The notes under the pieces were generated by a model, which saw only the letters and a program-made list of their open reading frames with translations, was not told the origin of the DNA and ran no database searches. Below, piece after piece: positions 1 to 10,190 of a stretch of 10,190 nucleotides of DNA. The position numbers and the translations under genes were made by a program. The stretch is from Treponemataceae bacterium (GTDB lineage Bacteria > Spirochaetota > Spirochaetia > Treponematales > Rectinemataceae). Each line of letters starts with the position of its first letter. Within the stretch, counting starts at the first letter, position 1. The stretch spans positions 1 through 10,190 of the forward strand of contig CAXXGJ010000024.1 in NCBI GenBank assembly GCA_963677895.2. The letters are read 5' to 3'.

Positions 1-790
1 ACGGTCTTCGCCTGCGGTCCGGCGAGCTTCTACGCCGCACGCAGCCTCGATCAGGTGAAGGTCGACGTCGCCTACGCCCGATCGAACGTCAAGGTTGTTG
101 GCATTTCGGGCGGCGTGAGCTACGGCCCCCTGGGAAGCACGCATCACGCGTTGCACGACATCGCCGTCATGCGCGCCTTTCCCGGCCTCGAGGTTTTCCT
201 GCCCTGCGACCGGGTCTCGACGGCGGCCGTGACGAGATACATGGCATCGAGCGGTAAGCCCGCCTATATGCGAATAGGCAGGGGCCCCGTGGGCGACGTG
301 TACGGAGAAGCCACGCAGGCGGGCGCCTCGCCAGGCGCGCCGCATGCGGGCGCATTAGGCGCGAAGCCCGAGTTTGTCCCAGGCAAGGCCAATGTCCTTC
401 GCGAGGGCGACGATTGCGCGATCATCGCCGTGGGGGAGATGGTCCAGCCCGCGCTGGCCGCGGCCGACATTCTCCTGAAGCGCGGCATCCGCGCGAGGGT
501 GCTTGACTGCTGGTCGCTCAAGCCGCTCGACACGGAGGCGATCGAGGCGGCGGCGCGGGAGACGCGCTTCATCGTGACCGTCGAGGAGCACAGCATGTAC
601 GGGGGCCCTCGGCGCCGCCGTCGCCGAGGTCGTCGTCCAGTCCAGCCCGCTGCCGATGCGCATTCTCGGCTTCCCCGACGAATGGGCGCCGGCGGGTTCA
701 TCGGCCGAACTCTTCGAACACTACGGATTCACCGCGGAAAACATAGCCGCCGTGGCGGCGGGCCTCGACGCCTCGACGGGGAGGCGCTGA
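1..790 (+). CDS. Split transketolase C-terminal (pyrimidine-binding + C-terminal domain) subunit, AptB-like. 5'-partial, with an apparent +1 frameshift at ~606-608.
   Basis: Frame 1 is open from base 1 (TVFACGPASFYAARSLDQVKVDVAY...GISGGVSYGPLGSTHH...AYMRIGRG...SLKPLD...IVTVEEHSMYGG). After GGGGGCCCTC (601-610) the family C-terminus continues in frame 2 from 608 (LGAAVAEVVVQSSPLPMRILGFPDEWAPAGSSAELFEHYGFTAENIAAVAAGLDASTGRR) to TGA 788-790, 3 nt before the next ATG. The Arg-rich tail of track ORF 55..936 is out-of-frame read-through. Confidence 0.9.
314..363 (+). repeat. Imperfect in-frame tandem duplication (27-nt period) in the transketolase interdomain linker
   Basis: CGCAGGCGGGCGC (314-326) vs CGCATGCGGGCGC (341-353), 12/13 identical. 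Each is followed by AGGCGCG (333-339 and 357-363). Encodes QAGASPGAP / HAGALGAKP. Confidence 0.55.
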
Positions 791-793
791 GGC

Positions 794-2290
794 ATGGGCG
801 GCTCCCTCATCCTCGCCATAGACCAGAGCACCCAGGCGACGAAAGCATATCTCATCGACAAAACAGGCGGCCTCGTCGCCAAGGCGGCGAAACCGCACCG
901 CCAAATCTATCCCGCCAGTGGCTTCGTCGAGCATGATCCCATCGAACTGTACCGCAACAGCCTCGACGTGATCGCCGCCGTCGTGGCCGAGACCGGCGTT
1001 CCGGCCACCGAAATCGCGTCGCTCTGCCTCACTAACCAGAGGGAGACGATCGTGGCCTGGGATGCCGAATCGGGCGAACCGGTGCACAACGCCATCGTCT
1101 GGCAGGACGAAAGGGGCGCCTCGATATGCGCCGAACTCGAGGCGAAGGGTTTCGGCCCTCTCGTGAGGGAGAGGACAGGCCTCAAGCTGGATCCCTATTT
1201 TTCGGCGAGCAAGCTTTCATGGCTCGTCAGGAACTCCCCCGAAGCCCTCGCCGCCCTCGATTCGGGCAGGCTGATGGCGGGCAGCGTCGACGCCTGGCTC
1301 ATCTGGAATCTCACCGGGCGAAGAGTCTTCGCCACCGATTATTCAAACGCCTCGCGGACGATGCTCTTCGATATCAGAAAGCTGGCTTGGGATCCCGAAC
1401 TTCTGGGGCTTTTCGGACTCGAAGGGATTCTTCTTCCCGAACCGCGCTGTTCCGACGCGGGGTTCGGGGAGGCGACGTTGAGCGATCCCGAAATGACCCT
1501 TCCGATATCCGGCGCGATGGGCGATTCCCACGCGGCTCTCTTCGGCCACCGCGGATGGAATCCGGGTGACGCCAAGGCTACCTACGGCACGGGGTCCTCC
1601 CTCATGCTGAATATCGGCGCCCAAGCGAGTCCCCCTCCTCCGGGCATCGTCCTCTCGCTCGCCTGGGGCATTCGAGGCAAAGCCGCCTACGTTTTCGAGG
1701 GCAATATCCATTCCACTGGCTACACGCTCCGCTGGCTGAAGGACAACCTGGGGCTCTTTTCGAACGACGACGAGGCCGAAGCCCTAGCCGCCGGCCTGGC
1801 CGACAACGGCGGCGTCTATTTCGTACCCGCCTTTTCGGGCCTGGGCGCTCCCTATTGGGAGCACGGCATCCGGGCCTGCATCACGGGGCTTTCGCACGGC
1901 AGCGACAGGCGGCATATCGTGCGAGCCGGCCTCGAATCGATAGGTTTCCAGGTGATGGATCTCGTCGACGCCATGAACAAAGGCGCGCCCGCCCCCCTAG
2001 CGTCCCTCCACGTGGACGGAGGTCCGTCGCGCAACGCGTTTCTCATGCAGTTCCAGGCCGATATGCTGGGCATTCCCGTCCTCGCGCCAGCGAGGGAGGA
2101 GCTGTCGGCCCTCGGCGTGGCCTACATGGGAGGCCTCGGCTCGGATTTCTGGGCTTCAACCGGGGAGATAGAAAGCCTCGCCGCCGATTCACGACGTTAT
2201 TCGCCCTCGATGGCGGAAGGGCAGCGGAAGGCTCTGGCCGAAGGCTGGAAATCGGCCGTCGCCCAGGCGATTTCCAGGAAAGTGGAATGA
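794..2290 (+). CDS. FGGY-family carbohydrate kinase, glycerol-kinase-like. Probable apulose-kinase-like sugar kinase rather than true GlpK.
   Basis: 498 aa with AIDQSTQATKA, VEHDP, TNQRETIVAWD, NAIVWQD, DPYFSASK, TDYSNASRTMLF, GDSHAALFG, KATYGTGSS, YFVPAFSGLGAPYW, VDGG and MQFQAD motifs. GGGAGG lies upstream at ~779-784. Confidence 0.9.
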   Translation: MGGSLILAIDQSTQATKAYLIDKTGGLVAKAAKPHRQIYPASGFVEHDPIELYRNSLDVIAAVVAETGVPATEIASLCLTNQRETIVAWDAESGEPVHNAIVWQDERGASICAELEAKGFGPLVRERTGLKLDPYFSASKLSWLVRNSPEALAALDSGRLMAGSVDAWLIWNLTGRRVFATDYSNASRTMLFDIRKLAWDPELLGLFGLEGILLPEPRCSDAGFGEATLSDPEMTLPISGAMGDSHAALFGHRGWNPGDAKATYGTGSSLMLNIGAQASPPPPGIVLSLAWGIRGKAAYVFEGNIHSTGYTLRWLKDNLGLFSNDDEAEALAAGLADNGGVYFVPAFSGLGAPYWEHGIRACITGLSHGSDRRHIVRAGLESIGFQVMDLVDAMNKGAPAPLASLHVDGGPSRNAFLMQFQADMLGIPVLAPAREELSALGVAYMGGLGSDFWASTGEIESLAADSRRYSPSMAEGQRKALAEGWKSAVAQAISRKVE

Positions 2291-2312
2291 ATATTTTTTC
2301 AAGGAGACTTGG

Positions 2313-3746
2313 ATGCGGGAAAATATGACGGCGGTGGAAAGGCCGCTCTGCTTCGGCGTTATCGTCAGTTCGCGGCTCTTTTTCAACGCGGCCCACGCGA
2401 TCGGCGCGAGGGAAGACATCCTCGCCGCACTCAAGCGGCAGGGCCATCAGGCTGTCATCGGCGCCCCCGGCCTCACCTCCGACGGGGCCGTGGCGAGTTT
2501 CGAGGACGCGCGGAAATACGCCGCGCTTTTCAAGGCTTCCAAGAAAGCTATTGACGGCATCATCGTCGTGCTGGCCAATTTTGGCGACGAGATCGGCGTC
2601 GTCGAGACGATCCGGCAGGCGGACTTGGGCGTCCCCGTCCTCGTACAGGCCTGCCCCGATCGGCTCTCCGAGCTGGGCGTTTCGGGCAGGAGGGATTCCT
2701 GGTGCGGCAAAATATCGGTATGCAACAATCTCTACCAGTACGGCATCCCCTGGACGGACACGACGAGCCACACCGTCGATTTGAAAAGCGATGAGTTCGC
2801 CGCCGATCTCGATTTCTTCGCTCGCGTATGCAGGACGGTAAAGGGCCTGAAGACGGCGAGGATCGGCGCCATCGGTACCCGCCCCGGCGCCTTCCAGACC
2901 GTGCGCTACAGCGAGAAGCTCCTGCAGAAGGCCGGCATCACCGTCGTTCCCGTCGATCTTTCGGAGATCTTCGCCGCCGCCGGCGCCCTGGGCGACGAAG
3001 CCCCAGAAGTAGTTGCCAAGGTGGAGGAAGTCCTGGGCTACGGCCGTGTTCCTTCCACGATTCTCCCCTCCAATATCGTGAAGCAGGCGAAATTCTCCGT
3101 CGCCGTGGAGCGCTGGCTGGACAGGAACGAATGCGACGCGAGCGCGATCCAGTGCTGGAACTCGATGGAAGAAAACTACGGCTGCTCGAGCTGCCTGACG
3201 ATGAGCATGTCGGGCGAGGCTCTGCGCCCGAGCGCCTGCGAAGTGGACGTCACGGGCGCCGTTTCGATGTACGCCCTCTCCCTGGCCTCGGGGAATCCCG
3301 CCGCCCTCCTCGACTGGAACAACAACTACGAAGGCCGGCCCGACCTCGTCGTCGGCACCCACTGCTCGAACTTTCCGAAGGGCTTCATGGGCACGGAGGT
3401 GGAGATTTCCAACCTCGACCTCCTCGGCGAAACTTTCGGGGCTGAGCGTTGCTTCGGGGCGATCAAAGGCCACGTGGCGCCGGGGGAATTCACCTATTTC
3501 AGGATTTCGACCGATGACGGGAAGGGATTCGTCAAGGGATATCTCGGGGAAGGCGAGTTCACCGCCAACCCCTTCGCCATGGACGGCGGCATAGCCGTAT
3601 GCAAAATTGAAGATGTCCGCGGCCTCATGCGCCACGTGACGCGCGAAGGATTCGAACACCATGTGGCCATGGCGCGTGGCCTGTCGGCCCGGGTCCTCCG
3701 GGAGGCCATCGAGCGGTACCTGGGCTGGAATCTGTATACGCATTGA
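2313..3746 (+). CDS. L-fucose/L-arabinose isomerase-family protein (aldose-ketose isomerase, substrate unknown)
   Basis: 477 aa with NFGDE, RRDSWCGKISVCNNL, RIGAIGTRP, ACEVD, LLDWNN, HCSN and FEHHVAM motifs. The E, D and H in ACEVD, LLDWN and EHH fit the FucI/AraA metal ligands. RBS AGGAG at 2302-2306. Confidence 0.85.
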   Translation: MRENMTAVERPLCFGVIVSSRLFFNAAHAIGAREDILAALKRQGHQAVIGAPGLTSDGAVASFEDARKYAALFKASKKAIDGIIVVLANFGDEIGVVETIRQADLGVPVLVQACPDRLSELGVSGRRDSWCGKISVCNNLYQYGIPWTDTTSHTVDLKSDEFAADLDFFARVCRTVKGLKTARIGAIGTRPGAFQTVRYSEKLLQKAGITVVPVDLSEIFAAAGALGDEAPEVVAKVEEVLGYGRVPSTILPSNIVKQAKFSVAVERWLDRNECDASAIQCWNSMEENYGCSSCLTMSMSGEALRPSACEVDVTGAVSMYALSLASGNPAALLDWNNNYEGRPDLVVGTHCSNFPKGFMGTEVEISNLDLLGETFGAERCFGAIKGHVAPGEFTYFRISTDDGKGFVKGYLGEGEFTANPFAMDGGIAVCKIEDVRGLMRHVTREGFEHHVAMARGLSARVLREAIERYLGWNLYTH

Positions 3747-3793
3747 GGGTTGGCGGTCCAATAGCCGCCTAGCGGGCCGCTCAGGAGCACACT

Positions 3794-4774
3794 ATGGAAT
3801 TCGTCAAGCTTGCGAACACCGATCTGCGCGTTTCTCGCCTCATAGCGGGCTGCATGGGCTTGGGCGGAGGCTGGGAAAAAAGCCTCGAGCTGAGCGAAGT
3901 CCATGAGGCCCAAGCCGACGATTTTCTCGCCAGGGCCCTGGGCGAAGGCATCAACTTCTTCGACCACGCCGATATCTACGCCTACGGCCGGGCCGAGGAA
4001 ATTTTCGGCAGGGCACTGTCGCGGAGGCCCGGCCTTCGCGCGAAGATCGTCATCCAATCGAAATGCGGCATACGCTGGGCCGACGAGCCGCCAGGCGCTC
4101 CCCACCGCTTCGACTTCAGCCGCGAGCACATCCTCGCCTCGGTCGAGGGCTCGCTCGGGCGGCTCCACACCGACTACCTGGACATCCTCCTCCTCCACCG
4201 CCCCGACAGCCTCTGGGAGGGCGAAGAAATCGCCGAAGCTTTCGCGACGCTCAAGGCTTCGGGCAAGGTGCGGTATTTCGGCGTTTCCAACCAGAACCGA
4301 GGGATGATGGAATACCTCCAGCATTTCCTGCCCGACCCCCTCGTGGCGAACCAGCTGCAGATGAGCCTCCTCCACCATGACTTCGTCGAGGCCGGCATCT
4401 CCTTCAACCAGGAGAGCGCCGGAAACCTCCAGGGATGGGAAGGCGTCCTGGAATACTGCCGCCTGCGGGGGGTCTCCCTCCAGGCATGGGGTCCGCTGGA
4501 CAAAGGACTCCTGGCGAGCGCCGAGCTCTCGAGCCTGGACCCTGGCCAGTGCGGTGCCGCCATCGAGCTGAGGGCTCTTGCCGCCGAGAGGGGGGTGCCT
4601 CCCGAAGCCGTCGCCCTGGCCTGGCTCCTGCGCCACCCTGCATGCATCATGCCCGTGCTGGGGACGGTCACGCCGCGGCGCCTCGAAGCCTGCGCCAGGG
4701 CGACAGACCTGTCCTTGAGCCGAGAAGAGTGGTATCGCCTTTTCGAGGCCGCCCGCGGCCGAAAGATGCCCTAG
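3794..4774 (+). CDS. Aldo/keto reductase, YdhF/YcsN-like
   Basis: 326 aa with GINFFDHADIY (catalytic D/Y), QSKCG (K), LLLHRPD (H), GKVRYFGVSN, NQLQMS, ALAWLLRHP and LSREEWY motifs. RBS AGGAG at 3783-3787. Confidence 0.92.
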   Translation: MEFVKLANTDLRVSRLIAGCMGLGGGWEKSLELSEVHEAQADDFLARALGEGINFFDHADIYAYGRAEEIFGRALSRRPGLRAKIVIQSKCGIRWADEPPGAPHRFDFSREHILASVEGSLGRLHTDYLDILLLHRPDSLWEGEEIAEAFATLKASGKVRYFGVSNQNRGMMEYLQHFLPDPLVANQLQMSLLHHDFVEAGISFNQESAGNLQGWEGVLEYCRLRGVSLQAWGPLDKGLLASAELSSLDPGQCGAAIELRALAAERGVPPEAVALAWLLRHPACIMPVLGTVTPRRLEACARATDLSLSREEWYRLFEAARGRKMP

Positions 4775-4861: not shown

Positions 4862-4890
4862 TTGACAGAATTGAAAACTGCCTTGATGAT
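4862..4890 (+). promoter_or_regulatory. Putative sigma70-type promoter for the racemase-transketolase-TRAP operon
   Basis: Perfect -35 TTGACA at 4862-4867, 17-nt spacer, then GATGAT at 4885-4890 (4/6 match to TATAAT). It lies in an AT-rich intergenic region with an A/T tract just upstream (4850-4859). Confidence 0.55.
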
Positions 4891-4920
4891 ATCAAACATA
4901 GGACATCATACATCTTATGT
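4883..4920. promoter_or_regulatory. Putative repressor operator(s) overlapping the -10/+1 region
   Basis: Inverted repeat TTGAT-gat-ATCAA at 4883-4895. At 4896-4920, ACATAGG ACATCAT ACATCTT ATGT has ACAT at a 7-bp period, outer arms ACATAGGA/TCTTATGT (7/8 complementary) and a terminal ACAT-N3-ATGT palindrome. Confidence 0.5.
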
Positions 4921-4950: not shown

Positions 4951-5613
4951 ATGCGCACAATCGCTGCAATCTATACCGGCGTCGCCCTGGTAAAGCCGCT
5001 TTCCGACCAGCTCAAGGAAGCCCTGCCGGGTTATCGCATCATGAATATTCTCGACGACAGCATGATTGCCGAGATCATCGCCGAAGGTCGGCTTACCGCC
5101 TCCGTGCGCCGCCGCCTCTATTCCTACTACGACGCCGCGGCCTCAGCCGGCGCCGAACTCATCCTCAACACCTGTTCCTCGATCGGCGAGGCGGTGTACG
5201 CCGCCCGGGACTTCATCCCCGTGCCCATCGTTCGAATCGACGAAGCCATGGCCAGGCGAGCGGTGGCCGAGGCCAGCAGGATCGCCGTCCTCGCCACCCT
5301 TTCCACCACGATCGATCCGACCATCGCCCTTCTGCGGCGCTGCGCCGCGGAAGCCGGCAAGACGATCACGACTATTTCCGCCGTCGCCGAGGGCGCCTTT
5401 CCCGCCATCACCGCCGGCGACGCCGCCACCCACGACAGGCTCCTCGCCGAGACGGCGAAGAAGGTCGCCGCGGACTGCGACATCATTCTCCTGGCCCAGG
5501 GCTCCATGGGGCGCATGGAAGCCCCCTTGCGCGAACTTACGGGCAAGACGGTGTATTCCAGCCCGCGGCTGGCCATCGAAATGGTGAAGAAAATGCTGGA
5601 GGGCAAGAACTGA
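4951..5613 (+). CDS. Asp/Glu/hydantoin racemase-superfamily protein (220 aa, single catalytic-site Cys)
   Basis: True start is ATG 4951 with GAGGT at 4938-4942. The track ORF start at 4435 overlaps the AKR and the promoter. Motifs: GAELILNTCSSIG, PIVRIDEAMA, RIAVLAT, DIILLAQGSM, VYSSP. Confidence 0.85.
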   Translation: MRTIAAIYTGVALVKPLSDQLKEALPGYRIMNILDDSMIAEIIAEGRLTASVRRRLYSYYDAAASAGAELILNTCSSIGEAVYAARDFIPVPIVRIDEAMARRAVAEASRIAVLATLSTTIDPTIALLRRCAAEAGKTITTISAVAEGAFPAITAGDAATHDRLLAETAKKVAADCDIILLAQGSMGRMEAPLRELTGKTVYSSPRLAIEMVKKMLEGKN

Positions 5614-5614
5614 G

Positions 5615-6445
5615 ATGATCGACGCCGAAAGAATTCACGCTGTCGAGGAACACGCGAGGCAGATCCGCCGCGATGTCGTCGAGATGGTGTACAAGACCGG
5701 CGATGGGCATCCGTCGCCATCCATGTCCGCCGCCGACATCATCGCCGCCCTGTATTTCGATGTGTTGCGCATCGATCCCGCCCGTCCCGACTGGGATGGC
5801 AGGGACCGCTTCGTCCTCTCGAAAGGCCACGCCTGCCCGGCCATGTACGCGGCGCTCGCCCGCAGGGGCTACTTCGCCCCCGAGGAGCTTTTAACGCTTC
5901 GCTTCCTCCATTCGCGGCTGCAGGGACACCCCTACGCCCCCAAGCTTCCCGGCCTCGACGCCACGACCGGTTCCCTCGGGAACGGCGTTTCCGTCGGACT
6001 GGGCATGGCCCTCGCCGCGCGCATCCGCAAGCTCGACTACCGCGTCTATGTGGTCACCGGCGACGGCGAATTGGGCGAGGGACTCATCTGGGAAGCCGCC
6101 ATGTGCGCGGGGCACCAGAAAGCGTCCAACCTGACCGTCTTCGTGGACAACAACAATTACCAGAGCGGCGGCACCGTGGGTGAAATCTCGGGCGTCTATC
6201 CCATCGAGGAGAAGTGGCGCGATTTCGGCTGGTACACGCAGTCGATAGACGGGCACGACGTCGGCCAGATTCTGGAAGCGGTGGAGAAGGCCAAACTCGA
6301 GAAGGATCGTCCTTCGGCTATCATCGCGAAAACGGTGAAGGGCAAGGGCATATCCTTCATGATCGGCGACAATACCTGGCACAAGCGCGTCTACACGACG
6401 CAGGAGTACGAACAGGCGATGCGGGAACTCGGGGGGGCGCTATGA
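5615..6445 (+). CDS. Split transketolase N-terminal (ThDP-binding) subunit
   Basis: 276 aa with GHP, RDRFVLSKGHA, LQGHP, TGSLGNG, the ThDP motif GDGELGEG...DNN, IDGHD, TVKGKG and WH. Starts 1 nt after the upstream stop. GGAGG at ~5597-5602. Confidence 0.95.
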   Translation: MIDAERIHAVEEHARQIRRDVVEMVYKTGDGHPSPSMSAADIIAALYFDVLRIDPARPDWDGRDRFVLSKGHACPAMYAALARRGYFAPEELLTLRFLHSRLQGHPYAPKLPGLDATTGSLGNGVSVGLGMALAARIRKLDYRVYVVTGDGELGEGLIWEAAMCAGHQKASNLTVFVDNNNYQSGGTVGEISGVYPIEEKWRDFGWYTQSIDGHDVGQILEAVEKAKLEKDRPSAIIAKTVKGKGISFMIGDNTWHKRVYTTQEYEQAMRELGGAL

Positions 6446-7416
6446 GCGGCGTATACGACAGCACCAGGATCGGCTTCCGCGACGGACTCGTCGCCCTGGC
6501 CGAAAAGCGCGACGACATCGTCTTCGTCTCCACCGATTCCATCAAGGTGGTGAAGGGCGAACCCTTCGCCCAGCGCTGGCCCGACCGCGTCATCGAAGTG
6601 GGCATAGCCGAGCAGAACGGCGTGGCGCTGGCCGCCGGCCTCGCGAGCGCGGGCTTGCGGCCCTATCTCTGCACCTACGCGGGTTTCCTCACGATGCGAG
6701 CCTGCGAGCAGATGCGCACCTTCGTGGGTTATCCGAAAGCGAAAGTGCGGTTCGTCGGCGTGAACGCCGGCGTCTTCGGCGGAAACCGCGAGGGCGTGTC
6801 GCATCAATTCATAGAAGATATCGGCATCCTGCGGACCATTCCCGGCTTCACGATTCTCTGCCCGGCGGACGGCGACCAGGTGAAACAGGCCGTCATCGCC
6901 TCTGTGGACATCGATGGGCCGGTCTACATCAGGATCGGGTCGGGGAAGGAAGAGCGGGTGTTCCCCGAGGGCACGCCCTTCGAGATCGGCAAGATCCGGG
7001 TGATGAAATCCTACGGCGACGACGTGGCCCTCTTCTGCCACGGTTTCGTGACCAACCGCGTGCTGAAAGCGGCCGAGGAACTCAAGGAAGCCGGAATCAA
7101 CGCGACGGTGGCGGAAGTGGCGACGATCAAACCGCTCGATGTGGCGGGCATTTCATCCGTCCTCGGCCGCTGCGGTTGCGCCGTCACGGTGGAGGACCAC
7201 AACGTGATCGGCGGCCTTGGCAGCGCCATCGCGGAAGTCATCGCCGAAGGCCTGACCGGAGTTCCGTCGGGAAGCGCGAATCCCAGGCTCGTGCGGCTCG
7301 GGATGCAGGACTGCTACGGGGAATCGGGCTTCCCCGACGAGCTCCTGGACGCGTACGGCATGTCGGTGAAGGACATCGTGGCCGCGGCGGCCAAAGCCCG
7401 CGCCCAAAAGAACTGA
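6442..7416 (+). CDS. Split transketolase C-terminal subunit (324 aa)
   Basis: ATG 6442 overlaps the upstream stop (ATGA) and has a G-rich RBS at 6431-6437. The track start at 6214 is too early. Motifs: EVGIAEQN, AGFLTMRACEQMR, EGVSHQFIED, PVYIRIG, TIKPLD, VTVEDHNVIGGLGSAIAE. Confidence 0.95.
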   Translation: MSGVYDSTRIGFRDGLVALAEKRDDIVFVSTDSIKVVKGEPFAQRWPDRVIEVGIAEQNGVALAAGLASAGLRPYLCTYAGFLTMRACEQMRTFVGYPKAKVRFVGVNAGVFGGNREGVSHQFIEDIGILRTIPGFTILCPADGDQVKQAVIASVDIDGPVYIRIGSGKEERVFPEGTPFEIGKIRVMKSYGDDVALFCHGFVTNRVLKAAEELKEAGINATVAEVATIKPLDVAGISSVLGRCGCAVTVEDHNVIGGLGSAIAEVIAEGLTGVPSGSANPRLVRLGMQDCYGESGFPDELLDAYGMSVKDIVAAAAKARAQKN

Positions 7417-7482: not shown

Positions 7483-8487
7483 ATGAAAAAGGCACTGTTC
7501 GCAGCGATGATTCTCTGCATGGCGTTCGGAGCCATGTCGGTGACGGCACAGACGCCGCAGAAACCGCTTAACCTGCGCTACGCGCACATGAATCCCCCCA
7601 ACAGCCCCAACGGGCTCCAGGCGCAGTATTTCGCCGACAAGATCGCCGAGAGGACAAACGGCGCCGTCAAGATCACGGTCTATCCCAACTCCCAGCTCGG
7701 CTCCATCAGCGAAATGGCCGAACAGGTCTCCATGGGTTCCATCGCCCTGCACCACAACACCTATGGCGGTCTGCAGCCCCTCCTCGAGGACCTCGGCCTC
7801 TTCGACACGCCCTTCCTCTATCGCGATGTCGACCATCTTCTGGCCGCGACCGATCCCAACACTTCGCCGGTGCTGAAGGAACTCAACGCGAAACTGATTG
7901 CGACGCGCAACGTCCGCGTTCTCTATTCCTTCTATTTCGGAACCCGCGACCTCACCTCCAACAAGGCCGTATATTCTCCCAAGGACCTCGCCGGCAAGAA
8001 AATCCGCGCCATTCCCTCCGCCATCTATCTCGCCGCCGTCGAAGGCATGGGCGCCGTGGCGGTCCCCATCGACTGGGCGGAAGTGCCGGTCGCCCTCTCC
8101 ACCGGCGTCGCCGATGGCCAGGAAAACCCCGTCAGCACCCTCGTGACCAGCAAGCTCTATGAAATCCAGAAGTACGTCATGCAGACGCACCACATCATGG
8201 GTTCCGAGCCTGTCGTCATCAACGAAAAAGTCTATCAGGCTCTTTCCGAAGAGAACAAGAAAATCTTCCAGGAAGTCGCCGTCGAGACCAGCAAATGGGC
8301 ATCCGACTATGTGCGTAACAGCGAAGCCAAAGACCTCCAGACCCTCAAAGACAAGGGCATGAAGGTCATCGGCGTGGCCGAAGGCCTCAAGATCGACGAG
8401 TTCAGGGCTTCCGTCAACGCCGTCGTGGCCAAACGCTTCGGCGCCAAGTGGGGCAAGTACTACGATCAGATCGCCGCGATAAAGTAA
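7483..8487 (+). CDS. dctP: TRAP transporter substrate-binding protein (DctP family)
   Basis: 334 aa. Sec signal peptide MKKALFAAMILCMAFGAMSVTA. Motifs ERTNGAVKITVYPNSQLG, TPFLYRD, GTRDL, DLAGKKIR, ALSTGVADGQENP and LYEIQKY. RBS AGGAGG at 7469-7474. Confidence 0.96.
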   Translation: MKKALFAAMILCMAFGAMSVTAQTPQKPLNLRYAHMNPPNSPNGLQAQYFADKIAERTNGAVKITVYPNSQLGSISEMAEQVSMGSIALHHNTYGGLQPLLEDLGLFDTPFLYRDVDHLLAATDPNTSPVLKELNAKLIATRNVRVLYSFYFGTRDLTSNKAVYSPKDLAGKKIRAIPSAIYLAAVEGMGAVAVPIDWAEVPVALSTGVADGQENPVSTLVTSKLYEIQKYVMQTHHIMGSEPVVINEKVYQALSEENKKIFQEVAVETSKWASDYVRNSEAKDLQTLKDKGMKVIGVAEGLKIDEFRASVNAVVAKRFGAKWGKYYDQIAAIK

Positions 8488-8582: not shown

Positions 8583-9059
8583 ATGAGGCGTATAGTTCGT
8601 GTCTTATGCGATACTTTTGAGAGTATCGCGATCGTGTTTCTCGTGGTCCTCTGCCTGTCGGTCTTTATTCAGATCATAATGAGGAATTTCTTCGCTTCGG
8701 GTTCGATTGTTCTCGAGGAACTCGCGAGGTTTTCCCTCGTCTCTCTCGTTTTCCTCATGATTCCCGTGCTTACGGTCAGAAAACAGCATATAATCGTGGA
8801 TTTTGTCCTCAACATGCTGGCCGTTCCGGTTCGCAAGGGATTCGATCTTGTGATCCAGATCGTGATCGGCGCCGGTTCTATCTTCCTCATCATCGCCATT
8901 TCGCGGATCATGGTCATGAACTACAACGTCCGGACGGCGGCGCTGCGTATGCCCAACTACATTTTTTACCTGCCGGTCGCGCTCGGCCTTCTCTTCAATG
9001 TTGTCGCTTCGCTGGATAATTTCATCACGACCATAAAGGGCAAGGGGGCAGTCAAATGA
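8583..9059 (+). CDS. dctQ: TRAP transporter small permease (158 aa)
   Basis: ATG 8583 with AAGGGA at 8572-8577. Four hydrophobic segments. Motifs QIIMRNFF, LEELARF, HIIVDF and TAALRMP. The track start at 8448 overlaps dctP and the hairpin. Confidence 0.92.
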   Translation: MRRIVRVLCDTFESIAIVFLVVLCLSVFIQIIMRNFFASGSIVLEELARFSLVSLVFLMIPVLTVRKQHIIVDFVLNMLAVPVRKGFDLVIQIVIGAGSIFLIIAISRIMVMNYNVRTAALRMPNYIFYLPVALGLLFNVVASLDNFITTIKGKGAVK

Positions 9060-10190
9060 GCGGCGGCGTGATAATCGGACTCTTTGTCCTTCTCATGATT
9101 CTTGGCCTGCCGATCGCCTTCAGTATGGTGATTCCCGCGGGCATCTATATGCTCGTAAGCCAGATACCCATCAGCACCGTCATCCAAAGAATGGTGACGT
9201 CGCTCAACTCCTTTCCCCTGCTCGCGGTGCCGATGTTCATCCTGGCGGCCAACCTCATGAACAACTCGGGCATAACCGGGCGGCTTTTCGATTTTTCGAA
9301 ACTGCTCGTAGGTAGGATGAGGGGCGGGCTCGCCCAGGTTAATGTCGTCGCTAGCCTGGTATTCGCCGGAATTTCCGGGGCCGCCCTCGCCGATATCGGC
9401 GGCTTGGGCAATATAGAAATCGAGGCGATGAGGAAGCAGGGATACTCCATGGAGGATTCAGCGGCGATAACCGCGGCTTCCGCCACGATAGGACCCATAT
9501 TCCCTCCGAGCATCCCGTTGATCATCTATGCCGCGGCCGCGGAGACTTCATCGATGCGTCTGCTCATGGGTGGCGTCGTTCCCGGGCTCCTGATCACCGC
9601 CGTCCTCATGGTAATGGTGGATTTTTTCGCCAGGAAAAAGAAATGGCCCCGAGGCATAGAAGGAAAGTGGAAGAAAGCCGAAGTGATTGACATCGTCAAG
9701 AAAGGGCTTCCCTCAATGCTCATGCCCGCAATTCTTATGGGTGGCATGCTTTCGGGCTGGTTCTCGCCGACCGAAGTGGCTTCGGTGGCTATAACGTATG
9801 CGATTCTGCTCGGCATCATCTATAGAAGCTTTACCTTCAAGGGCCTGGTCAAGGTTGCCAAAGAGACGCTTGTTTCGACGGCTTCGGTCCTGTTCATAGT
9901 AGCCGCCGCCGCTATTTTCGCCTGGACGCTCACCGTCGAACAACTTCCCCAGCAGATCGCCGCCGCGCTTCTCGGCATTTCCTCCAGTCCCATCGCCCTG
10001 CTTAATGTTAACCAACGTCATTCTTCTCATCGCCGGGATGTTCTTGGAAACCACGGCTGCCATCATGATCTTCACGCCCATCCTGCTGCCCACGCTCGTG
10101 GCCGCGGGCGTGAACCCCGTGCATTTCGGCCTCGTGATGGTATTCAACCTCATGATCGGCATGCTGACCCCGCCGGTCGGGATGAGCATC
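9056..10190 (+). CDS. dctM: TRAP transporter large permease. 3'-partial, with an apparent +1 frameshift at ~10002-10005.
   Basis: Not in the ORF track because it has no stop within the window. Manual translation from ATG 9056 (ATGA overlap with dctQ) gives MSGGVIIGLFVLLMILGLPIAFSM...SFPLLAVPMFILAANLMNNSGIT...GGLAQVNVVASLVFAGISGAALAD...GPIFPPSIPLIIY...FSPTEVAS...EQLPQQI...SPIALL. It continues in frame 3 from 10005 as MLTNVILLIAGMFLETTAAIMIFTPILLPTLVAAGVNPVHFGLVMVFNLMIGMLTPPVGMSI. Confidence 0.95.
   Translation, partial: MSGGVIIGLFVLLMILGLPIAFSMVIPAGIYMLVSQIPISTVIQRMVTSLNSFPLLAVPMFILAANLMNNSGITGRLFDFSKLLVGRMRGGLAQVNVVASLVFAGISGAALADIGGLGNIEIEAMRKQGYSMEDSAAITAASATIGPIFPPSIPLIIYAAAAETSSMRLLMGGVVPGLLITAVLMVMVDFFARKKKWPRGIEGKWKKAEVIDIVKKGLPSMLMPAILMGGMLSGWFSPTEVASVAITYAILLGIIYRSFTFKGLVKVAKETLVSTASVLFIVAAAAIFAWTLTVEQLPQQIAAALLGISSSPIALLNVNQRHSSHRRDVLGNHGCHHDLHAHPAAHARGRGREPRAFRPRDGIQPHDRHADPAGRDEH

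Follow-up and report, generated by a model that had tools for sequence, protein, structure and literature searches.

A split transketolase subfamily with a rebuilt substrate pocket and its possible role in L-aceric acid breakdown

The 10,190-nucleotide stretch of DNA analyzed here, referred to as the window, comprises positions 1 to 10,190 of contig CAXXGJ010000024.1 from a Treponemataceae bacterium (assembly GCA_963677895.2). It encodes a split transketolase, with the alpha (PP) subunit at 5615..6445 and the beta subunit (Pyr and C-terminal domains) at 6442..7416, both on the plus strand. Our analysis suggested that this enzyme belongs to a subfamily that cleaves phosphate-free, branched carboxylated ketoses. 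In spirochaetes and Firmicutes, its operon would encode an anaerobic pathway for L-aceric acid, the first such pathway, in which this enzyme splits the carbon chain; the same pocket would serve apionate where D-apionate oxidoisomerase (ApnO) is present. In this pathway, AceA-Rha-Api or free aceric acid left by degraders of rhamnogalacturonan II (RG-II) would be imported, then isomerized by a racemase-fold enzyme with one catalytic cysteine. We give this reading a probability of about 0.5. Its parts differ in strength. The donor of the subfamily is very probably carboxylated and non-phosphorylated, and aceric acid is a likely substrate of the module in the window. With somewhat less confidence, we propose that the transketolase acts on L-aceric acid in its ketose form and splits this isomer into 3-hydroxy-2-oxobutanoate and a two-carbon unit, the latter probably passed to glyceraldehyde 3-phosphate (G3P).

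The transketolase and its pocket

The open reading frame at 6442-7416 encodes a 324-residue beta chain with the Pfam domains Transket_pyr and Transketolase_C. Its start overlaps the stop of the alpha gene, which carries Transketolase_N, and the domains in both genes exceed the Pfam gathering scores, as expected for a split transketolase. The best PDB match for both chains is the split transketolase of C. hydrogenoformans (6YAJ/6YAK; PMC7661550), which has the same fold; the thiamine diphosphate (ThDP) and catalytic residues are kept in the window enzyme. An AlphaFold model of the beta chain matched 6YAJ with a Z score of 40.6 and a root-mean-square deviation of 1.8 over 300 residues. Its mean confidence (pLDDT) is 92, and only 69 in block 111-120, which holds the inserted R116. 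In the alpha chain, H32, H72, H105, H256 and the GDGE...N motif are intact. The cofactor and catalytic set of split transketolases (D150, E152, N180, H32, H72, H105, H256, E57 and H121, including the His26/66/100/261/473 equivalents) is invariant.

We label the pocket positions with what we take to be the residue numbers of E. coli TktA (R358, S385, H461, D469 and R520). They were mapped by HMMER alignment to 6YAJ and human transketolase, and by RSFHR, the phosphate motif of transketolases (PMC11659671). Relative to these enzymes, the R358 equivalent is retained as R9 (codon 6466-6468). S385 is replaced by V36 (6547, in TDSIKVV at 6532-6552), H461 by N108 (6763, in VNAG at 6760-6771) and R520 by S167 (6940, in YIRIGS at 6925-6942). 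D469 is replaced by E117 (6790), next to an inserted R116 (6787), in the loop GGNREGVSHQ (6778-6807). A sequence-only reading of this DNA had proposed these five assignments by eye, and the alignment agrees with all of them. Together with K169, these residues (R9, V36, N108, R116-E117 and S167) form the signature of the beta chains in the subfamily, in which catalytic E57 and H121 are retained. The C. hydrogenoformans enzyme has RSFHR, a GEDG loop and WHG. The window enzyme instead reads R-V-F-N-S, NREG with the insertion, and WHK, and therefore lacks the canonical sugar-phosphate signature of RSFHR with D469. It scores 212 and 304 bits on the NCBIfam transketolase equivalogs against a cut-off of 488, a shortfall partly due to the split gene. 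The contrast that had been drawn with the first transketolase subunit in the window is weaker than proposed. That chain does contain YMRIGR (265-282), but it has also lost the H461 and D469 equivalents, which are Ser and Leu.

The altered residues are highly conserved. We sampled 160 loci (80 from genomes and 80 from metagenomes; loci carry L-numbers, and G000 is the source genome), which contain 144 distinct beta chains. N108, R116 and E117 are invariant in all 144. Position 167 is Ser in 136, Asn in six and Cys in two, never Arg or Lys. Among the 119 closest homologs, N108 and E117 are found in 119, R116 in 118 and S167 in 116 (Asn in the other three), and position 36 is never Ser. For comparison we took the 150 best profile matches among representatives at 50% identity; seven belong to the subfamily and the other 143 serve as background. 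Arg or Lys is found at the R520 position in 131 background chains, His at H461 in 91, Ser at S385 in 87 and Asp at D469 in 88. All three phosphate residues are changed in eight, and the insertion column is filled in none. By this comparison, loss of S385, H461 or D469 alone is common, and loss of R520 together with the Arg insertion is a rare signature. Six other beta chains (P0127, P0129, P0133, P0145, P0154 and P0156) have Glu at the D469 position without the Arg insertion, Leu or Met in place of the His, and a basic residue aligned with R520. They appear to be another specialized group.

The sequence-only reading had concluded that most of the phosphate site was lost. This was not borne out as worded, since it considered the beta chain alone. 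Alpha D30 (5702-5704), S184 and K257 (6383-6385) are specific to the subfamily and invariant in 141 chains. K257 directly follows the catalytic His, a place occupied by Gly in the solved split transketolase and human transketolase, and by Gly or His (WHG/WHH) in other alpha chains of the fetched loci and the source genome. At beta position 169, 143 of the 144 chains have a basic residue, Lys or Arg. Alpha K257 and beta K/R169 could rebuild an anion site. With R9 kept and positive charge added by R116, K/R169 and alpha K257, the pocket looks rebuilt rather than lost, and because several positive charges remain in it, 'rebuilt' is the better term. G3P as the likely acceptor also argues that some phosphate binding remains. 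K35 and K38 were considered as compensating residues and rejected: each corresponds to a Lys of the C. hydrogenoformans enzyme, whose site is complete, and Lys or Arg is found at position 38 in 79 of the 143 background chains.

Against 29 outgroup rows, the subfamily forms a single clade (SH-aLRT 100 in a quick tree search). A total of 587 clusters match one subfamily member at E below 1e-100. The distribution is patchy: a search of 300 genomes sampled from the window's phylum gave no member, and phylum-wide co-occurrence is uninformative for the transketolase; a plasmid search gave no match at E 1e-60. Three markers, the Arg-Glu insertion, loss of the R520 equivalent and WHK, would allow several hundred proteins now called plain transketolase to be annotated.

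Genomic contexts and related transketolases

Neighboring genes of the 160 loci were sorted by BLAST. The most frequent context, with 84 loci, includes the window and has a racemase-like gene, a transaldolase-like gene or both (racemase 74, transaldolase 62, cupin 55, DctP 46). In 49 loci, many of them from Blautia and other Lachnospiraceae, the transketolase is followed by a homolog of ApnO. A 2-hydroxyacid dehydrogenase resembling hydroxypyruvate reductase is present in 33 of these, and a glycerate kinase in at least 11 (the two glycerate kinase counts are 11 and 3). ApnO was identified by PF16896 together with six motifs that surround residues reported in PMC13753588 and are present in 48-49 of the 49. 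Eight loci (L147, L148, L155, L156, L157, L159, L163 and L166) have the transketolase followed by IlvD, with an ApbA-like (ketopantoate-reductase-like) reductase in five; we read them as a third pathway variant. The other 19, mostly short contigs, show none of these contexts. No locus among the 160 combines ApnO with the racemase/transaldolase context.

ApnO converts D-apionate to 3-oxo-isoapionate, without phosphate, and erythronate to 3-oxo-tetronate, and no transketolase step was found among the oxidative routes given in the same source (PMC13753588). Cleavage of 3-oxo-isoapionate by a transketolase would release hydroxypyruvate, and reductase and glycerate kinase neighbors are therefore expected. 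The ApnO linkage is pointing to a non-phosphorylated 2-hydroxy-3-oxo-acid as donor. The earlier proposal of a non-phosphorylated, carboxylated substrate thus holds for the ketol donor, with the same site found beside ApnO homologs in 49 loci, but the acceptor may still be G3P. A D-apionate locus of Blautia hydrogenotrophica with ApnO (C0CMQ7), a putative transketolase and a hydroxypyruvate reductase was reportedly described by Carter et al. in 2018. No B. hydrogenotrophica name appears among 120 listed of the 587 matches to one subfamily member.

The ApnO-linked transketolases have the same active-site signature as the window enzyme and belong to the same clade. Active-site residues are identical in all three contexts: N108, R116, E117, H121 and K/R169 in the beta chain, and D30, S184, H256 and K257 in the alpha chain. 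In a filtered comparison, only V/A36, S/G7, alpha S/A36 and two distal positions separate the ApnO-type from the racemase-type enzymes. With so few differences, the two donors cannot be distinguished from the pocket. The ApnO context requires three changes on the subfamily tree; together with the identical residues, this suggests a single pocket that works with different partner genes.

Unlike the ApnO-linked loci, the window has no ApnO and has a racemase-like protein; its relatives add a transaldolase-like protein, a cupin and a glycoside hydrolase of family GH127. ApnO is found in only two of 31 genomes of the racemase/transaldolase type, and none was detected in the source genome (tblastn, E 1e-6; genome 92.8% complete). 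In the fetched loci of this type, no kinase is a recurring partner and no dehydrogenase a conserved member of the module. As the module has no ApnO, conserved kinase or dehydrogenase but has a tripartite ATP-independent periplasmic (TRAP) transporter, the substrate is expected to contain both a carbonyl and a carboxylate when imported.

Two observations concern neighbors in these loci. Twelve ApnO loci (L034, L042, L047, L052, L071 and others) contain an Amidohydrolase_2 gene, a candidate apionate lactonase, together with a sugar ABC transporter. In L009, L027, L057 and L080, a gene for a beta-keto acid cleavage enzyme (PF05853) lies near the transketolase or its operon.

Several known transketolases resemble the window enzyme. 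SqwGH, the sulfofructose transketolase (PMC11659671), is also split, with a non-phosphorylated anionic donor, G3P as acceptor and a remodeled head-group site. Its genes accompany an isomerase and sometimes transaldolases, as in the window-type modules. By analogy, G3P is the most likely acceptor here. However, the RAFDR motif of SqwGH keeps both Arg and has Asp at the His position, whereas the window enzyme has lost the second Arg (Ser), has Asn at the His position and carries the Arg insertion. A SqwGH-type identity was rejected on this motif. No sulfoquinovose isomerase is found in the conserved module, and the L-fucose-isomerase-like protein of the window scores 86 bits against a cut-off of 700. 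A second likeness is to AptA/AptB (named in PMC13001218), the apulose-4-phosphate transketolase. This enzyme is likewise split and cleaves a C3-branched ketose from an RG-II sugar. An AptB-like gene lies upstream in the window. AptAB depends on the kinase AplK and retains the R520 equivalent, whereas the window enzyme has S167 and is expressed from a separate promoter that follows the kinase-containing module. The outgroup includes the AptB-like chains, which are ~29% identical. The window enzyme would work like SqwGH and AptAB, yet it lacks the motifs that define them and falls in the same clade as the ApnO-linked enzymes. Engineered E. coli transketolases (S385Y/D469T/R520Q and R358I/H461S/R520Q; PMC10787763, PMC12016104) are changed at the same positions and shift toward unphosphorylated or carboxylated substrates. 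They differ in being single-chain laboratory variants without the Arg insertion or the alpha Lys. If our reading is true, the subfamily provides a natural transketolase for branched carboxylated donors; the biocatalytic value suggested for it earlier is speculation.

The link to aceric acid and its alternatives

Aceric acid, a rare sugar of plant pectin, is 3-C-carboxy-5-deoxy-L-xylose. Its ketose isomer, 3-C-carboxy-5-deoxy-pent-2-ulose, is 3-oxo-isoapionate plus one methyl. As this ketose is the methyl homolog of 3-oxo-isoapionate, one isomerase and a subfamily transketolase would suffice to yield 3-hydroxy-2-oxobutanoate and a two-carbon unit bound to ThDP.

In PMC13501991, the aceric acid hydrolase of GH127 is BT1003. 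A GH127 gene is present in the fetched flank of six of the 84 racemase/transaldolase loci (L016, L033, L078, L146, L152 and L160) and in none of the 49 ApnO loci. These six score 603-992 bits on the NCBIfam aceric acid hydrolase model (NF049879), one of them above its cut-off of 950, and the generic GH127 of G000 scores 452. The best PDB match of the L016 protein is 5MQO. Genome-wide, hits of at least 600 bits are found in nine of 30 module genomes, none of 43 ApnO-type genomes (best 502) and none of the 300 phylum genomes (best 468). The Fisher probability of ~1e-4 overstates this difference, since the 600-bit line was set at a gap after the scores were seen and related genomes are not independent. 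One of seven unassigned genomes, G332, also has such a hit; a second transketolase copy, of the module type, adjoins its GH127.

Gene order provides further indications. In relatives with 95% and 87% identity, the operon consists of GH127 (913 and 886 bits), a GH78 rhamnosidase, an ABC transporter, DeoR, apiose-type genes and then the transketolase module. The apiose-type part in close relatives has a transketolase pair, a kinase (present in L003, absent from that position in L001), an isomerase-like gene and an aldo/keto reductase, and L168 has an additional GDSL esterase. The trisaccharide AceA-Rha-Api is secreted by B. thetaiotaomicron (10.64898/2026.03.13.711244), and the order GH127-GH78-ABC-apiose fits it. 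Sphaerochaeta sp. S2 (L014) also has the module, the TRAP system and a GH127 scoring 733 bits. GH127 adjoins the transketolase without apiose-type genes in L016, L033, L146, L152, L160 and L173; in L173 it (835 bits) immediately precedes the transketolase, transaldolase-like and cupin genes. Other RG-II-type hydrolases flank L078, L120, L128, L150 and L153. On the tree, the branch of IlvD loci adjoins L146 and L033, both with GH127, and IlvD would be a fitting fate for 3-hydroxy-2-oxobutanoate.

In the proposed mechanism, aceric acid enters via the TRAP transporter, or may be freed from AceA-Rha-Api by the GH127 and GH78 of the relatives' operons. The one-Cys racemase-fold protein would turn the aldose into 3-C-carboxy-5-deoxy-pent-2-ulose, with kinase and dehydrogenase unneeded. 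ThDP would then attack C2, with the branch carboxylate bound by R116 and perhaps also by alpha K257, and cleavage between C2 and C3 would free 3-hydroxy-2-oxobutanoate. In the weakest step, the two-carbon unit may be transferred to G3P to give xylulose 5-phosphate, with R9, K169 and K257 binding its phosphate. The four-carbon keto acid would finally be reduced or otherwise processed, by the transaldolase-like protein, the cupin or reductases. The transaldolase-like protein could act before or after the transketolase.

A number of observations weigh against this assignment to aceric acid. No strong aceric acid hydrolase hit is found in 21 of the 30 module genomes, and just one of ten neighboring GH127 proteins (992 bits) passes the family cut-off, the others scoring 603-913 (generic GH127, 345-502). 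G000 has no close GH127 or GH78; its contig is the window only and begins inside the first transketolase gene, possibly at an assembly gap. GH127 is grouped with apiose-type genes in L170 and L172, apart from the subfamily transketolase, and some of the linkage could reflect apiose release. Members of the racemase-like family are also found in unrelated contexts (L191, L194, L195, three other plasmid regions and a Deinococcus tetronate-type cluster), and G000 holds a racemase-like and transaldolase-like pair without a transketolase. The remodeled transaldolase-like partner, present in 62 of the 84 loci, has no clear role in the scheme.

The main alternative is a different order of steps in the same pathway, which we consider unlikely but plausible; the presence of the transaldolase-like gene in 62 of the 84 loci supports it. 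The transaldolase-like protein would act first, either as a Schiff-base aldolase that releases acetaldehyde and leaves 3-oxo-tetronate or as a decarboxylase. The transketolase would follow, cleaving 3-oxo-tetronate to glyoxylate and a two-carbon unit, or a 5-deoxy-pentulose to lactaldehyde and a two-carbon unit. In a variant, the route branches and a single ketose is used by both enzymes, which is what has been proposed for sulfoquinovose in Faecalicatena. In the transaldolase-like protein the Schiff-base Lys is conserved, the sugar-binding Asp is changed to Asn and the catalytic Glu to Gln, and one phosphate Arg has been lost; the changes suit a C3-carboxylated, unphosphorylated substrate. 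Consistent with this order, ApnO yields 3-oxo-tetronate as well, and a glyoxylate-carboligase-like ThDP gene lies near the racemase/transaldolase paralogs of G000. However, the transketolase site equals that of loci with ApnO, hydroxypyruvate reductase and glycerate kinase, which points to a branched donor. In addition, L033 and L160 have racemase, transketolase and GH127 genes with no transaldolase-like gene in the flank, although G330 has one elsewhere.

The donor may instead be a different acid sugar: 3-oxo-isoapionate derived from apionate without ApnO, a tetronate, or a ketose from pectin with a terminal carboxylate, such as 5-keto-gluconate or tagaturonate. The many module genomes without a strong GH127 hit, the position of the module directly behind apiose-type genes in the window and an altronate-dehydratase-like neighbor in L029 agree with this, and TRAP import suits any carboxylate. 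E. coli transketolase altered at R358/H461/R520 (R358I/H461S/R520Q) gains activity on 5-keto-gluconate (PMC12016104). We nevertheless find such a donor rather improbable: with no dehydrogenase conserved in the module, an imported acid should already carry the carbonyl, 29 of 31 genomes lack ApnO, and in the six loci named above GH127 adjoins the transketolase in the absence of apiose-type genes.

An ordinary sugar-phosphate transketolase, with a pocket rebuilt from R9, R116, K169 and alpha K257 and serving with transaldolase as an extra pentose-phosphate shuttle, is very unlikely. The alignment does place four basic residues, kept or added, near the pocket, and transketolase and transaldolase genes are neighbors in most loci. 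However, G000 has other transketolase genes, the subfamily was not found in the 300 phylum genomes sampled, the surrounding genes form acid-sugar modules, and phosphate residues are missing from the transaldolase-like protein too. The possibility of a nonfunctional paralog, decayed or misassembled, can be set aside: two single-base frameshifts relative to L001 affect other genes of the contig, but both transketolase frames are open, a promoter and an operator-like element are conserved, and the single clade and the invariance of cofactor and catalytic residues in 141-144 relatives from several phyla argue against decay or chance.

RG-II depolymerization is well mapped, and the module gives a short gene set as a candidate route for the aceric acid released. 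It is also a candidate taker of AceA-Rha-Api, whose uptake by other microbes is called undetermined in 10.64898/2026.03.13.711244. PMC12168206 lists the biosynthesis of aceric acid as unidentified. Literature searches, which cover subscription papers poorly, found no publication on its breakdown. This analysis adds the pocket common with ApnO-linked transketolases, the Lys of the alpha chain, genome counts made against controls and the match to the trisaccharide. The activity of the subfamily is accessible without aceric acid, as ApnO makes 3-oxo acids from available sugar acids (PMC13753588).

Other genes and control elements

The candidate aceric acid aldose-ketose isomerase is an Asp/Glu-racemase-fold protein (4951..5613, plus strand). 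The racemase fold is confirmed. Only the first catalytic Cys is present (C75, in 70 of 70 sequences) and the second site reads LAQGSM, with Ala-Gln, which departs from the two-cysteine pattern of Asp/Glu racemases. A PDB sequence search gave no match, and ESM Atlas gave generic racemase clusters only. The family is also found beside a DUF1537 kinase and a RuBisCO-like protein in Rufibacter and in L192, the latter with GH127 and GH78; in this context it would stand in for ApnO. In L193 it occurs with a DUF1537 kinase, GH42 and GH78. On a Deinococcus taeanensis plasmid (L189, 6078-10798), a racemase-like gene lies with a dehydrogenase, a four-carbon acid sugar kinase and a class II aldolase, and its product may replace the OtnI isomerase.

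A sigma-70-like promoter, TTGACA-17-GATGAT (4862..4890, plus strand), is a candidate for the transketolase module. Of 44 distinct close loci, 43 have TTGACA ahead of the racemase-like gene. Just past the -10 box lies a conserved imperfect palindrome (4896..4920, no strand assigned), a candidate operator of the GntR/FadR regulator of the relatives' operons. The promoter with two half-sites is found in 32 of the 44 loci and in 72 of 10000 random windows from the same loci, by a pattern written after the sequences were seen.

Downstream of the transketolase, on the plus strand, Pfam identified the TRAP solute-binding protein DctP (7483..8487), the small permease DctQ (8583..9059) and the large permease DctM (9056..10190, truncated by the contig end). 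DctP keeps a conserved Arg, R175 (8005), which we take to bind carboxylate. In relatives, dctM is followed by a transaldolase-like gene, a cupin gene and GntR. The cupin is KdgF-like and represents an alternative isomerase or ring-opener.

Upstream, also on the plus strand, positions 1..4774 appear to form an apiose-type module: a partial AptB-like transketolase beta gene (1-790), an FGGY kinase (794-2290), the L-fucose-isomerase-like protein (2313-3746) and an aldo/keto reductase (3794-4774). These names are provisional and follow PMC13001218 in part. Relative to L001, an extra base at ~607, in the AptB-like gene, and another at ~10004, in dctM, shift both frames and are possibly assembly errors.

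Additional clusters were observed in the source genome and the sampled loci. In G000, C18:388000-404000 (L081) contains an ABC transporter, an FAD oxidoreductase and racemase-like and transaldolase-like paralogs without a transketolase, with an acetolactate-synthase-family ThDP gene on the opposite strand. At least four further transketolase loci are found on C27, C1, C12 and C22 of this genome, two of them split (L085 and L086). In RG-II loci L128 (13195-16237), L133, L150 and L153, two conserved proteins of ~640 and ~370 residues, with no Pfam or NCBIfam hit, are encoded between an apiose-type transketolase and a DUF1537 kinase. Upstream of the GH127 operon in L167 (2261-7676) is a cluster of a ROK kinase, an RpiR regulator, a DUF6259 protein and a D-psicose 3-epimerase (above cut-off). 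The transaldolase-fold family of L113 (6385-7434) and 54 relatives also has a new Glu and His, and its best PDB match has an E-value of only 1e-10; it is possibly a new aldolase or decarboxylase.

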